Assembly (NCBI GenBank): GCA_963760615.1
Contig: CAVXDX010000002.1
Location: 1-14,065 of the forward strand
Direction: 5' to 3'
Origin: an uncultured Candidatus Micrarchaeota archaeon
GTDB lineage: Archaea; Micrarchaeota; Micrarchaeia; Burarchaeales; Fermentimicrarchaeaceae
DNA: 14,065 nt
Numbering within the stretch: position 1 is the first letter of the stretch; each line of letters starts with the position of its first letter. Under the pieces are notes generated by a model. That model was not told the DNA's origin. It saw only the letters and a program-made list of their open reading frames with translations, and made no database searches. This document shows, in pieces, positions 1-10,450 of the stretch. The position numbers and the translations under genes are program-made.

Positions 1-840
1 GAATGTTGCGCAGGCTACCTTTGCAATGCAGATATGCAGTGTGCCCCTCAACCAGTAATTCTCTGCGCGAATTCCTTCCCGAACTGCACAGGAACCTGCA
101 ACAGCGGATGGTGCTTTAACTCAGGGCCTGGGATCTGCACATGCGCAGCATACGATGATAATTCATGCACCAGTCTGTGCTCCTCTTCGGGATCACCTTA
201 CGGAAGAAGAGTCCACAGCTCTAGTAACTGCAGCGCATCAGAATCATACATAAACGGCTGCTGTTGTTACTCTCAGGCTGCTCCGCCGCAACAGCCACCA
301 CAACAAAGCTGGTACTACTGTTGCTATTCAAACGGCCAAAATCACTGTTCCTCAACATTATGTCTCCCAACGGAGTTTACAATGGGCAGCGGTTTCTCCT
401 CCCAACAGTCATGCCAATCCTCATGTCTCGGGCAACCGCAGCAGAATTATTATTGCTGTATGACCCCGGATGGGGTCAAGAACTGCGTGAACCAAACCTG
501 CCCGTTTGGATGGGCTCAGTTTAACACTCCTGTAGCATCTCAGGATGCCTGTTTGACCTCCTGTGGTCTGCACTGGTCCTGCTGCTCAAACTATACAGGA
601 TACGCCCAATGCATGAACCAGCCCTGCGGTGCTGGATGGAATGAATTGGACGGTTATTTCAACTCACAAAGTGACTGCAACTCTTACTGCCTTGGCCCCA
701 ACCCGCAGACATACAACTGTTGCTACGACCCATCTTCCAGCTCAGCAACATGCTATGTAGGTTCGTGCCCCCAGGGCTGGAATCTCTACTGGGCCACCAT
801 GGGGCAGTACTACTGCACCAGGAACTGCGTGCACCCATAA
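1..840 (+). CDS. Cysteine-rich modular (probably extracellular) repeat protein, 5'-truncated by the window edge
   Basis: Frame 1 is open from base 1 (GAA TGT TGC GCA GGC TAC CTT TGC AAT GCA GAT ATG = ECCAGYLCNADM), so the ATG at 34 is probably internal. By manual count there are 40 Cys in 279 codons. It has a PPQQPPQQ linker, four C-terminal 6-Cys repeats and sequons NCT, NCS, NQT, NYT. Stop is TAA at 838-840. Confidence 0.85.
   Translation, partial: ECCAGYLCNADMQCAPQPVILCANSFPNCTGTCNSGWCFNSGPGICTCAAYDDNSCTSLCSSSGSPYGRRVHSSSNCSASESYINGCCCYSQAAPPQQPPQQSWYYCCYSNGQNHCSSTLCLPTEFTMGSGFSSQQSCQSSCLGQPQQNYYCCMTPDGVKNCVNQTCPFGWAQFNTPVASQDACLTSCGLHWSCCSNYTGYAQCMNQPCGAGWNELDGYFNSQSDCNSYCLGPNPQTYNCCYDPSSSSATCYVGSCPQGWNLYWATMGQYYCTRNCVHP
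319..828 (+). repeat. Four tandem protein repeats CC-x7/9-C-x4-C-x15/16-C-x3-C (319-426, 454-564, 580-690, 718-828)
   Basis: CCYSNGQNHCSSTLC..FSSQQSCQSSC / CCMTPDGVKNCVNQTCPFGW..SQDACLTSC / CCSNYTGYAQCMNQPCGAGW..FNSQSDCNSYC / CCYDPSSSSATCYVGSCPQGW..QYYCTRNC. Cys spacing is conserved, each unit is preceded by an aromatic residue, and CxxGW occurs in three of four units. Confidence 0.9.
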
Positions 841-883: not shown

Positions 884-926
884 CACCAAAAGCTATATAT
901 TTACTCCACCAAAAGGAATTCGGTGG
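884..926 (+). promoter_or_regulatory. Putative archaeal promoter (BRE caaaag + TATATAT) and GGTGG SD-like motif for the 931 gene
   Basis: caccaaaagcTATATATttac has its TATA box at 894-900, about 35 nt upstream of the ATG at 931. GGTGG lies at 922-926. Confidence 0.55.
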
Positions 927-930
927 TCCT

Positions 931-2727
931 ATGGGCGAAACTCTTGGGCATGTTACCTTTTTGGTTATCGGAATTGTGATTGGTGCCGTAATCCTATCCC
1001 TTCTATTATTCATCATCTGCTATCTGGGAGGGATGTGCGGTTTCATTTCGCCTCCTTGCAATACGCCCCCCGCCGTAATTCAGATATACCCTAGAGGTGA
1101 GTGTTCGCAGCATGCTCAAACATGCGGCTACGTGATGCCGCTTACTGGCTCTAATCTGACCGGTGCAAGCCAATACCAAGGCTGTTGCAATGGACTTACC
1201 TGCACTGGAGGTTACTGCAGGCAACCTGGTGAAATATGCATGACTGGTGGTCAGCTCTGCGGCACAGGACCTTCGCCTTCTTCCAACCCAATTCCTGATT
1301 ATTATGGTGAGTGTTGCAGCGGCTACCAATGTGTTGGCGGTTACTGCAAAACTCCCTCAAGCTGCGCGTCGCAGGGAGCAAATTGCAATTACGATTCAGA
1401 CTGCTGTTCTGGACTCACCTGCAGTGATGGGAAATGCATAAAAGAATGCACCAGATCAGGTTCATGCGCAAGCAATGCGGATTGCTGCAGCGGTTACTCC
1501 TGCAATATGAGCACCTACGCCTGTTTCATAAACGGATGCGGATTAAGCGGCTATTACCCCTGCTACTCGGATAATGACTGCTGCCAAGGACTTACCTGCA
1601 TGAATGGCACATGCGGCTCCCCGACTAAATTATGCAGCCAGATAACGCCCCAGACACCCAGCGACTGCAACCCGGGTCTCTGTTCCGGAGGACAGTGTCA
1701 TTATCTCCCAGCAACGCACCAGAATAGCAACTCCTCACAACCAATAGTCGAAAATGCGAAGTGCTGGTGCGACCTATGCGTTCAGACTCCTTCAAATTCG
1801 GACAGCATTTGGGTGAAGGGAAATTGCAACAATGGGACAGTTGCCAATACGGACTACTGCGACCAGGAAGGCGGGGAAATTTTGCACAACAGCCGTTGCT
1901 TTAACTATACGACATACATTCAGGTTAGCGGCACTGATACTGCCTTCACCGGCTATCCATTAAGCTCTTGCACGATGTATACGGTAAACTGCAGCCAATA
2001 CAATGCAGCATGCCGCGATGGAGCATGTGTGAACATCACCTGCAAGACTTCCGGTATTTGCACGCGTGACTCTGACTGCTGCTCCAGCTACTACTGCAAT
2101 CCGAACGGCAATTGTGCCGTGATACCGACATGCAGATATGAATCTGCAACATGCACGAACACTTCTGAATGCTGCCATGGGCTGGAATGCAGATCTGGTC
2201 AATGTTGGCCCCCGTGCCACTTGGCCAACTCTCCATGCTCTGTAAATTCGGACTGTTGCCAAGGTTACAGCTGCTACAGCGGATACTGCAGCCCTTCATG
2301 TGTTGACACCACAATCACATGCGCAAACACCTCGCAATGCTGCCCAGGCGACTACTGCCATTACGACAACACATGCCATTCCTCCTCGTGCAATTCACTT
2401 GGAGGCTCATGCACAACAAACACCGGGTGCTGCTCCCCCTATGCGTGTGTGAATGGCACCTGCAGCACACCCCCAACCTGCCAGACTTCGGGAAGATGCA
2501 ACACCGATACTGACTGCTGTTCTAACTATTACTGCAACTCAAACTACTATTGCAGCATATGCATGACCGCAGGAAGCTGCACCCAGAATTCCCAGTGCTG
2601 TGAAGGATACTGCAGCAATAACGGCTACTGCAGCTCCCAATCATGCAAGATGGCAGGCGGAAACTGTGCTCTCGCAAGCGACTGCTGCTACGGCATGATT
2701 TGCAAGGCAGGAACCTGCTCTGCGTGA
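931..2727 (+). CDS. Membrane-anchored cysteine-rich surface glycoprotein with 13 knottin-framework-like (C-C-CC-C-C) repeats
   Basis: 598-aa ORF with a hydrophobic N-terminal segment (VTFLVIGIVIGAVILSLLLFIICYL), about 95 Cys (16%, manual count), 13 six-Cys modules and 11 N-x-S/T sequons. It is preceded by a TATA box and GGTGG. Confidence 0.88.
   Translation: MGETLGHVTFLVIGIVIGAVILSLLLFIICYLGGMCGFISPPCNTPPAVIQIYPRGECSQHAQTCGYVMPLTGSNLTGASQYQGCCNGLTCTGGYCRQPGEICMTGGQLCGTGPSPSSNPIPDYYGECCSGYQCVGGYCKTPSSCASQGANCNYDSDCCSGLTCSDGKCIKECTRSGSCASNADCCSGYSCNMSTYACFINGCGLSGYYPCYSDNDCCQGLTCMNGTCGSPTKLCSQITPQTPSDCNPGLCSGGQCHYLPATHQNSNSSQPIVENAKCWCDLCVQTPSNSDSIWVKGNCNNGTVANTDYCDQEGGEILHNSRCFNYTTYIQVSGTDTAFTGYPLSSCTMYTVNCSQYNAACRDGACVNITCKTSGICTRDSDCCSSYYCNPNGNCAVIPTCRYESATCTNTSECCHGLECRSGQCWPPCHLANSPCSVNSDCCQGYSCYSGYCSPSCVDTTITCANTSQCCPGDYCHYDNTCHSSSCNSLGGSCTTNTGCCSPYACVNGTCSTPPTCQTSGRCNTDTDCCSNYYCNSNYYCSICMTAGSCTQNSQCCEGYCSNNGYCSSQSCKMAGGNCALASDCCYGMICKAGTCSA
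1102..1614 (+). repeat. Five tandem C-C-CC-C-C modules (N-terminal block)
   Basis: CSQHAQTC-x19-CCNGLTCTGGYC; CMTGGQLC-x17-CCSGYQCVGGYC; CASQGANCNYDSDCCSGLTCSDGKC; CTRSGSCASNADCCSGYSCNMSTYAC; CGLSGYYPCYSDNDCCQGLTCMNGTC. Confidence 0.9.
2041..2718 (+). repeat. Eight tandem C-C-CC-C-C modules (C-terminal block)
   Basis: CKTSGICTRDSDCCSSYYCNPNGNC through CKMAGGNCALASDCCYGMICKAGTC. Consensus is C-x5/6-C-x5-CC-x3/4-C-x4/5-C with linkers of about 2-5 aa. Confidence 0.9.
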
Positions 2728-9602: not shown

Positions 9603-10412
9603 TTACTTCACTTTAAATTTTTTGAAACTCTTGCTCACTTCCTCGCTCCAGAAGCTTGGCAGCGCATTCTCAACAATTCCGCGGAACTCATCAGAATAGA
9701 CAAAAGTCGCCTTTGCTGCATCCGCTCTGCTTTCCCTGAAATTTCTTTCAGCCTGCTCATAAACTTCACGTATCTTCTTTCTCTCAAAATCTTTCTGGAG
9801 CAATGATGGCTTCCTGAGAAGGAGGTAATCCGCCTGTCTTATGGCATTCACCTCAAGGTTTGCGGAATTTTGTGAGATGAAGAGCACGCTCAAATCTTTG
9901 TGCCTCGCTATAAGAAGTAGGTTTGAGAGAAGCTTGTTCGCGTCTGACATGGAGTCACGCGAGGAAAAAATAATCCCTCCCTCATCAACAAGTACGAATG
10001 AACCCTCCTTTATCTCATCAACACTTCTCACCACCTTTACCCACCCAGGCAGGATATCCTCCCTAAACCCCATTGCGCAAACCTTTCTATTTGTTTTTGC
10101 ATGAACATTCTCCAGAATTCTCAGGCCAAGAGCGCTCTTCCCACTTCCCCTTGCGCCGATTATCAAGCCAACAGTGCTTTTAGAATTGAGCAGCTTCTCC
10201 TCAAACCCCTCCAATGAGCCATCAACCACATTGACAACCTTTAGCTCTACATAGGCTGCGCCCGCCCTTGGCTTCCTTGCCTCAACTCCAGCACTTCTCA
10301 CAGAGCCAGTTATGAGATGATACGCAGAACCAAGAAGCCAGATTATTACTCTGAAAAATGAGCTGAATAAATTTACCACGAAATTCCACAAGGAACTCTT
10401 CTTCTTTGCCAT
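9603..10412 (-). CDS. P-loop ATPase, Zot/filamentous-phage pI-like (FtsK-HerA superfamily-type), with N-terminal hydrophobic/amphipathic segment
   Basis: Walker A IIGARGSGKS, Walker B VLVDEGG, and downstream ARHKDLSVLFISQ (RH...Q signature). The N-terminus is LWNFVVNLFSSFFRVIIWLLGSAY. Start MAKKK at 10412 is preferred over 10433. Confidence 0.72.
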   Translation of the reverse strand: MAKKKSSLWNFVVNLFSSFFRVIIWLLGSAYHLITGSVRSAGVEARKPRAGAAYVELKVVNVVDGSLEGFEEKLLNSKSTVGLIIGARGSGKSALGLRILENVHAKTNRKVCAMGFREDILPGWVKVVRSVDEIKEGSFVLVDEGGIIFSSRDSMSDANKLLSNLLLIARHKDLSVLFISQNSANLEVNAIRQADYLLLRKPSLLQKDFERKKIREVYEQAERNFRESRADAAKATFVYSDEFRGIVENALPSFWSEEVSKSFKKFKVK

Positions 10413-10450
10413 GCTATTAGAATAAACACACAATAAGAAAAACCTTGCCT

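Follow-up and report, generated by a model that had tools for sequence, protein, structure and literature searches.

A membrane-anchored Micrarchaeota protein with thirteen six-cysteine modules of predicted inhibitor cystine knot fold

The stretch of DNA analyzed here (the window, 14,065 nucleotides) is a complete contig (C2) of the 1.14-Mb genome of an uncultured Candidatus Micrarchaeota archaeon (G000, 91% complete). Near its beginning lies the coding sequence of a cysteine-rich protein of 598 amino acids, referred to here as P0001 (positions 931–2727, forward strand), an open frame that begins at the first ATG after a stop and ends with a stop codon at 2725–2727. The protein contains 95 cysteines (15.9%), 13 CC doublets, 11 N-x-S/T sequons and 9 histidines. 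Upstream lies the 3' part of a paralogous gene, and downstream are purS, purL, purQ and further genes of nucleotide synthesis. Most of P0001 consists of thirteen six-cysteine modules behind a single predicted membrane anchor, and these modules carry the cysteine framework of the inhibitor cystine knot (ICK, or knottin) and are predicted to adopt its fold. An extracellular, disulfide-stabilized stalk or adhesin is the role considered most plausible.

The layout of P0001 can be followed along the forward strand. The chain starts with a conserved MGETLGH stretch, followed by one transmembrane helix (residues 5–32, positions 943–1026) for which AlphaFold2 (AF2) gives a predicted local distance difference test score (pLDDT) of 83–88; the single N-terminal hydrophobic anchor of the original prediction is therefore borne out. 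A juxtamembrane linker of 25 residues containing Cys36 and Cys43 (residues 33–57, positions 1027–1101), where model confidence is low, leads to five membrane-proximal modules (residues 58–228, positions 1102–1614; individually 1102–1218, 1237–1347, 1363–1437, 1447–1524 and 1537–1614). A central non-module region of 142 residues with 14 cysteines (residues 229–370, positions 1615–2040) starts with a four-cysteine partial module and continues with a domain of unassigned fold. Eight membrane-distal modules complete the chain (residues 371–596, positions 2041–2718; individually 2041–2115, 2131–2205, 2215–2289, 2299–2376, 2389–2463, 2479–2553, 2560–2631 and 2644–2718), with a period of about 28 amino acids and linkers of 2–5 residues.

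All thirteen modules follow the pattern C-x5-7-C-x5(17-19)-CC-x3-4-C-x4-6-C, with gaps of 5–7, 5 (17–19), 0, 3–4 and 4–6 residues between successive cysteines; the second loop is long (17–19 residues) in modules 1 and 2 and has 5 residues in the others. The strict pattern is matched 13 times in P0001, compared with a mean of 0.036 and a maximum of 2 in 5000 composition-preserving shuffles. The thirteen C-C-CC-C-C modules and their spacing, the cysteine content of about 16% and the count of 11 sequons, all proposed from the first reading of the DNA, were thus recovered. The accompanying image of beads on a string holds for the modules, but the string is interrupted by the 142-residue region and is better described as five plus eight. 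Likewise, the 11 sequons leave N-glycosylation possible, but their number is at chance level (9.0 ± 2.6 in shuffles, 27% of which reach 11), and this test rules out an enrichment in glycosylation sites. At the DNA level, the module copies are alike only to 60–87% over 22–77 nucleotides. The repeats are therefore old and not an assembly artefact, and both recent repeat expansion and assembly collapse were ruled out on this basis.

Evidence for the fold of the modules comes from sequence profiles and from structural models. A profile of the 13 modules gave 64 matches at E ≤ 10 when compared with all PDB sequences, and the best 60 are nearly all ICK toxins. The top match is AcaTx1 from a sea anemone (6nk9), with all six cysteines aligned and E = 5e-4, a significance that is marginal for single targets of 30 residues; the double-ICK toxin Xt3a, heteropodatoxin, hanatoxin, SGTx1 and omega-conotoxins were also found. 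In a full-length AF2 model built on an alignment of 21 sequences, the modules reach a pLDDT of 70–90, and in each of them a short turn precedes the CC doublet and the last two cysteines sit at a hairpin. Squash inhibitors, conotoxin GXIA, Pn3a and double-knot toxins lead the list of Foldseek matches to this model. Modeling of a single module had been suggested as a check on the original prediction; module 13, modeled alone on an alignment of 77 modules (pLDDT 79), does match knottins. Among 48,161 representative chains compared using VIA-align, 46 reach Z ≥ 2, nearly all of them knottins, with a top Z of 3.6. The module superposes on GXIA with a root-mean-square deviation of 0.9 Å over 26 residues and on AcaTx1 with 1.2 Å over 27 residues (44% identity), and the module models superpose on knottins at 0.8–1.2 Å over 26–28 residues. 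In Foldseek, module 13 finds SGTx1 first (probability 0.98, TM 0.71), then hanatoxin, jingzhaotoxin-XI, Pn3a and EETI-II. Chains of Dkk1, Dkk4, draxin and Bv8 are also among the module 13 matches (Z 2.1–3.3), ranked below the knottins. All six cysteines are kept in 244 of 302 module matches within the family, the remainder being mostly partial alignments, and the losses among these 302 are too few for paired cysteine loss to serve as a guide to disulfide partners. The modules thus show the cysteine framework and loop lengths of knottins, likeness in sequence and, as predicted, a superposable fold bearing the hairpin. Taken together, sequence and models support the view that the modules carry the ICK cysteine framework and a predicted ICK fold.

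The most likely arrangement, we infer, is an ectodomain that is extracellular and disulfide-bonded. An extracellular location is supported because the upstream paralogue has a lipobox, relatives appear to be exported, and genes for DsbA-like proteins and AglB are present. The identical type of module stands behind lipobox signals in the paralogue and in subfamily A, and among the N-termini of the 144 best further relatives, 17 are Tat-like (twin-arginine translocation), 39 lipobox-like and 23 hydrophobic. Partner domains recognized in other, mostly unnamed relatives are VWA, Big_5 (Ig-like), RTX and TSP3. The source genome encodes two STT3/AglB homologues and three DsbA-like open reading frames (ORFs) with hydrophobic N-termini (contig C1, 7592–8017, reverse strand; C8, 122131–122478, reverse; C12, 64839–65867, forward). 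CSYC and CPPC motifs are present in two of these; the third, of 543 amino acids, has two domains. In one group of relatives (P0031, P0048, P0049, P0054, P0057, P0064, P0067 and others), the module follows a conserved N-terminus of twin-arginine type (M-D-x-Q-R-F-D ... S-R-R), which is odd if the domain, as expected, has to fold oxidatively outside the cell.

The upstream paralogue extends beyond the window. Contig C16 ends in the 427 nucleotides with which the window begins, an exact overlap; C16 and C2 are therefore contiguous, and the frame at positions 1–840 (forward strand) ends a gene of 678 amino acids in all that begins on C16. Its product has a lipobox signal (ILLFGC), about 12 modules like those of P0001 and a different C-terminal cysteine-rich domain. 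This domain (window positions 300–840, forward strand) contains about four copies of another six-cysteine unit of about 45 residues, with the pattern aromatic-aromatic-CC ... C-x4-C ... C-x3-C and with no match in Pfam or NCBIfam. The locus is a tandem paralogue pair, with one member helix-anchored and the other probably lipid-anchored, and within the source genome the module is borne by these two genes only. The tandem pair recurs in genome G001 (locus L005) and as the NCBI neighbors H0N98_05140 and H0N98_05145.

Three congeneric genomes (G001, G002 and G004) each have a positional orthologue of P0001 immediately upstream of purS-purL, and the MGETLGH-plus-helix N-terminus is common to all of these orthologues. 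Two other types of signal were considered for this N-terminus and ruled out: a lipobox, since Phe or Ile precedes the conserved cysteine in P0001 compared with Gly-Cys in the paralogue, and a class III (pilin-type) signal, since no charged residue precedes the Gly in MGETLG/H. The number of modules is 13 in the source genome, 13 in G001, 16 in G002 and 12 in G004, and the central region is present only in the source genome, G001 and a metagenomic fragment (P0046). From these differences among orthologues it follows that the six-cysteine module is the unit gained or lost, and that the central insert is dispensable.

Rates of change were estimated between the source genome and G001. The P0001 protein is 71.5% identical between the two (dN 0.205, dN/dS about 0.15), compared with 85–89% identity and a dN of 0.06–0.085 for purS and the start of purL, so that nonsynonymous change is about three times faster in the P0001 gene. 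The fastest part is made up of the distal modules 6–13, with 55% identity at non-cysteine positions versus 72–75% in the proximal modules and the insert. Regional dN/dS values of 0.07–0.26 across P0001, with dS saturated, show no sign of pervasive positive selection. By these estimates, the gene is real and conserved, and under purifying selection overall.

The module also occurs far beyond this genus. Among 1.84 billion representative clusters, 477 were matched by a profile of 77 modules at E ≤ 1e-3; at the stricter E ≤ 1e-10, there were 73. The relatives often have many tandem copies, up to 17. Named members include a Bilamarchaeaceae protein (P0170, Micrarchaeota), which NCBI labels 'dickkopf-related protein', proteins from Polyangiales, Archangium and Myxococcales, and one wasp protein. 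Within Micrarchaeota its distribution is patchy: at E ≤ 1e-6, the module was detected in 21 of 301 sampled genomes. These represent 10 of 129 genera and belong for the most part to two other families. As had been guessed, similar repeats do exist elsewhere, the profile search finding them in other Micrarchaeota and in many bacteria. Judged by its sequence, the module is not unique to this archaeon but is a building block that is widely shared by exported proteins of prokaryotes and has gone unannotated.

It is proposed, with moderate confidence, that P0001 acts as an extracellular, disulfide-stabilized stalk or adhesin, function being the weakest part of this proposal. In this view, P0001 would be held in the membrane of a DPANN archaeon by its N-terminus, in a type-II-like manner, and would display on the cell surface an ectodomain of 13 autonomous six-cysteine mini-domains. 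These would be joined by linkers of 2–6 residues, often with proline, and interrupted by one lineage-specific insert of 140 amino acids. After Sec-type export, the modules would be oxidized outside the cell, probably aided by the membrane-anchored DsbA-like oxidoreductases, and each would become a small three-disulfide bead resisting proteases, acid and heat. Strung together, these beads would stand out from the membrane as a semi-rigid stalk that does not stretch and measures a few tens of nanometres. Its likeliest role would be that of a structural or adhesive surface filament alongside the neighboring lipid-anchored paralogue, in which the fast-evolving distal modules would touch a partner that varies, for example a glycan or the surface of a host cell. 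The faster change in the distal modules would fit such a partner-facing tip. Of all this, the gene, its architecture, conservation and synteny, and its likeness to ICKs in sequence and predicted fold were shown directly, and the topology, the disulfide pairing and knotting, the geometry of the stalk and its adhesive role are inferences. A stalk or adhesin is favored over a toxin or inhibitor array, or a precursor, because the loops are conserved, the linkers lack a cleavage motif, loop 1 does not resemble a reactive-site loop, and selection is purifying. The loops share a consensus among modules (x-T/A-S/G-G-x in the first, then [SD][DE]-CC, G-Y/L and a Gly in the hairpin), and the linkers (RQPGEI, KTPSS, IKE, FING, WPP, SPS, SI and others), some of just 2 residues, have no cleavage motif in common.

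Several observations weigh against this proposal. Concerning the fold, the Pfam knottin families stay below their cut-offs on P0001 (Conotoxin_I2, PF17557, 17.2 versus 27 bits; Toxin_12, PF07740, 11.3 versus 21 bits), and NCBIfam gives no match for the protein. The ICK framework put forward in the original prediction is upheld, as far as prediction goes, by the cysteine spacing and by profile, AF2 and Foldseek matches to ICK toxins and squash inhibitors, but not by Pfam. The Z-scores are low (3.6 at most) and the Foldseek E-values exceed 0.1, as expected for domains of 30 residues. Moreover, AF2 may echo knottin folds learnt for such a cysteine pattern, and the models are not independent proof. 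Concerning the topology, the N-terminal flank of the helix is without Lys or Arg, and in the orthologues an Arg directly follows the helix. With these flank charges, the positive-inside rule does not settle the topology, which is left to other evidence; the surface location proposed earlier finds support in the lipobox paralogue, the exported relatives and the DsbA-like and AglB genes, but not in a clear charge bias of the helix flanks. DsbB and VKOR were not found in the 91%-complete genome. Concerning the role, modules differ rather little from one another at non-cysteine positions (TSG, [SD][DE]CC, G-Y/L), as would suit a structural element better than a diversified binding surface. The rate estimates come from one genome pair with a saturated dS (about 1.4), so that dN/dS is rough.

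Other explanations differ from the stalk or adhesin in what the modules do, how they are bonded or where they reside. P0001 could be a multi-headed display of inhibitors or toxins, or a polyprotein that is processed to release single knottin peptides. Like the venom and seed peptides that they resemble, the modules would then block a channel, transporter or protease of a host, whether still on the string or once released. Channel toxins and squash protease inhibitors are indeed the solved structures most like the modules, the P0001 gene changes faster than the genes next to it, and plant precursors with several knottin copies are known. However, linkers that shrink to 2 residues and share no cleavage motif speak against this explanation, as does the membrane anchor, and the conserved x-T/A-S/G-G-x of loop 1 is not a reactive-site loop with Arg, Lys or Leu at P1. 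Toxin loops are hypervariable, whereas those of P0001 are conserved between modules; selection is purifying overall, and the recognizable partner domains of relatives (VWA, Ig-like and RTX) are not toxin cassettes. We consider this explanation unlikely. Judged about equally unlikely is that the modules are rich in disulfides but not true knots, with another connectivity or an unthreaded arrangement as in a disulfide-directed hairpin, a Dickkopf/colipase-like or an EGF-like domain. Dickkopf_N (PF04706) is the best Pfam score of P0001, although at 23.2 bits it does not reach the cut-off of 25, and the pairing of a true knot (I–IV, II–V and III–VI, with III–VI threaded through the ring) is hypothetical for P0001; the Dkk1, Dkk4, draxin and Bv8 chains among the structural matches and the NCBI name of P0170 also point in this direction. 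The best Dickkopf_N stretch (residues 377–425), however, straddles two modules and so crosses their border, and the repeat unit has 6 cysteines, not 10, and is gained or lost singly. Knottins outnumber and outrank the Dickkopf types in all three fold searches and superpose over the whole module, and the six cysteines align with those of solved ICKs at equal spacing. In addition, the ring-closing loops (5–7 and 3–4 residues) are presumably typical of ICKs.

Highly improbable, in our judgment, is a reverse signal-anchor orientation of the helix that would place the repeats in the cytoplasm as a thiolate-rich metal store or sensor. Such a location would agree with a cysteine content of 16%, with the lack of a basic residue before the helix and the Arg after it in orthologues, and with the failure to find DsbB or VKOR. 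Evidence against it comes from the paralogue and relatives, where such modules follow signals of the lipobox, Sec and Tat types, from the exported DsbA-like proteins encoded in the genome, from an ICK spacing that differs from the CxC and CxxC clusters of metallothioneins or zinc ribbons, and from the scarcity of histidine (9 of 598 residues).

Compared with known systems, the modules are closest to single knottins (the spider toxins hanatoxin, SGTx1 and Pn3a, of Pfam Toxin_12; omega and other framework VI/VII conotoxins such as GXIA; AcaTx1; the squash inhibitors EETI-II and MCoTI-II), with which they have in common the C-C-CC-C-C order, the loop lengths, non-cysteine motifs (D-C-C-S-G-L/Y-x-C), up to 44% identity and the predicted superposition of the fold. 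The known knottins are eukaryotic peptides that are secreted and free, comprise one domain (rarely two) and have hypervariable loops, whereas P0001 is archaeal and membrane-anchored, fuses 13 copies and has fairly conserved loops, its fold being predicted. The double-knot toxins DkTx, Xt3a and Hi1a, all three among the sequence or fold matches, resemble P0001 in their tandem ICK domains and short linkers, but they have two units and are soluble components of animal venoms, compared with the 12–16 units of the anchored archaeal family. Dickkopf/colipase domains (Dkk1/4, prokineticin Bv8), despite the best Pfam score, overlap with the modules in part (Z 2.1–2.6), and theirs are 10-cysteine units of eukaryotic signaling proteins. 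P0001 fits the description of secreted cysteine-rich repeat proteins (SCREPs; PMC6262176), an export signal with at least two repeated cysteine-rich domains behind it, in having 13 such domains after an N-terminal hydrophobic segment, but it is anchored and not secreted; the survey of these proteins covers bacteria and eukaryotes (PMC6262176). The prokaryotic relatives, namely Micrarchaeota proteins, Myxococcota lipoproteins and Tat-signal proteins, share the module profile and differ in anchors (lipobox, Tat) and partner domains. None of them is characterized, and no function can be carried over from them to P0001.

Knottins are prized as ultra-stable scaffolds for drugs and imaging, and they are regarded as eukaryotic venom or defence peptides. 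Their absence from archaea was still noted in the KNOTTIN database paper (2017, PMC5753296). Full-text literature on knottins with DPANN or archaea (for archaea, the best-ranked titles) yielded no report of archaeal knottins. A 2026 preprint on cysteine-rich repeats and gene transfer was excluded as a prior account of the module, its subject being different and Micrarchaeota appearing in it only as a source of non-repeat matches. The fold itself is known; the combination of 12–16 units in one chain, anchorage in a membrane and occurrence in an archaeon, as read from the sequences, appears to be an architecture of which no earlier description was found. If the proposed stalk or adhesin is correct, the fold would reach the third domain of life through a natural chain of 12–16 membrane-borne archaeal knottins, and it would gain a new use, as a structural surface polymer instead of a free ligand. 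It would also provide a concrete candidate for the poorly understood cell–cell contact of DPANN archaea and a natural set of linkers for poly-knottin engineering. All of these claims of significance are prediction. A bolder version, possible but doubtful in our view, is that the modules are true cystine knots, the first in Archaea and the longest natural poly-knottin chains (12–16 units); that the pair of transmembrane- and lipid-anchored proteins tethers episymbiotic Micrarchaeota to their host; and that the knottin scaffold, with its module spread unannotated through Myxococcota, Tat-exported bacterial proteins and several Micrarchaeota families, is an ancient prokaryotic surface building block and not an invention of eukaryotic venom or defence.

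The central insert stands apart from the modules. No family in Pfam or NCBIfam was found for residues 229–370, atlas feature scores are at chance level (≤ 0.79), comparison with the paralogue's C-terminal domain gave nothing convincing, and the AF2 pLDDT falls below 50 for residues 282–350. For residues 286–345, the only PDB matches at E ≤ 10 (phmmer) are lectins of the OAA family, 4fbr (MBHA, a myxobacterial haemagglutinin; E = 0.093) and 7dc0 (E = 1.1), and both alignments keep the register of every lectin repeat. The Pfam family SBD (PF17882) gives no match to the central region at E ≤ 10. The likeness to OAA lectins is unconfirmed and is kept as a weak lead.

Around the P0001 gene, a TATA-like box (TATATAT, positions 893–900, forward strand) lies about 35 nucleotides before the start codon and may be its promoter, judging from position only. 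A GGTGG motif (920–924, forward strand) 6 nucleotides before the ATG is a possible ribosome-binding motif, and purS is preceded by GGTGG too. Among the purine and pyrimidine synthesis genes downstream, an ORF of 276 amino acids (9603–10433, reverse strand) has weak matches, below cut-offs, to STAND NTPase 5 (E = 3e-4) and a Zot-like P-loop (2e-3). Elsewhere in the source genome, whose small size is combined with a heavy predicted investment in disulfide-rich surface proteins, two further cysteine-rich ORFs were noted: one of 1403 amino acids with 185 cysteines (C12, 41834–46042, reverse) and one of 464 amino acids with 58 cysteines (C3, 128933–130324, forward). Their N-termini resemble archaeal class III (pilin-type) signals, with K-A/G-Q-S and a hydrophobic stretch. 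Two lipobox ORFs, one with IAFGC and 49 cysteines (C10, 6380–7402, reverse) and one with LLAGC and 39 cysteines (C13, 41387–42259, forward), contain other types of repeat, with a C-x5-C-x6-C-x6-C periodicity.

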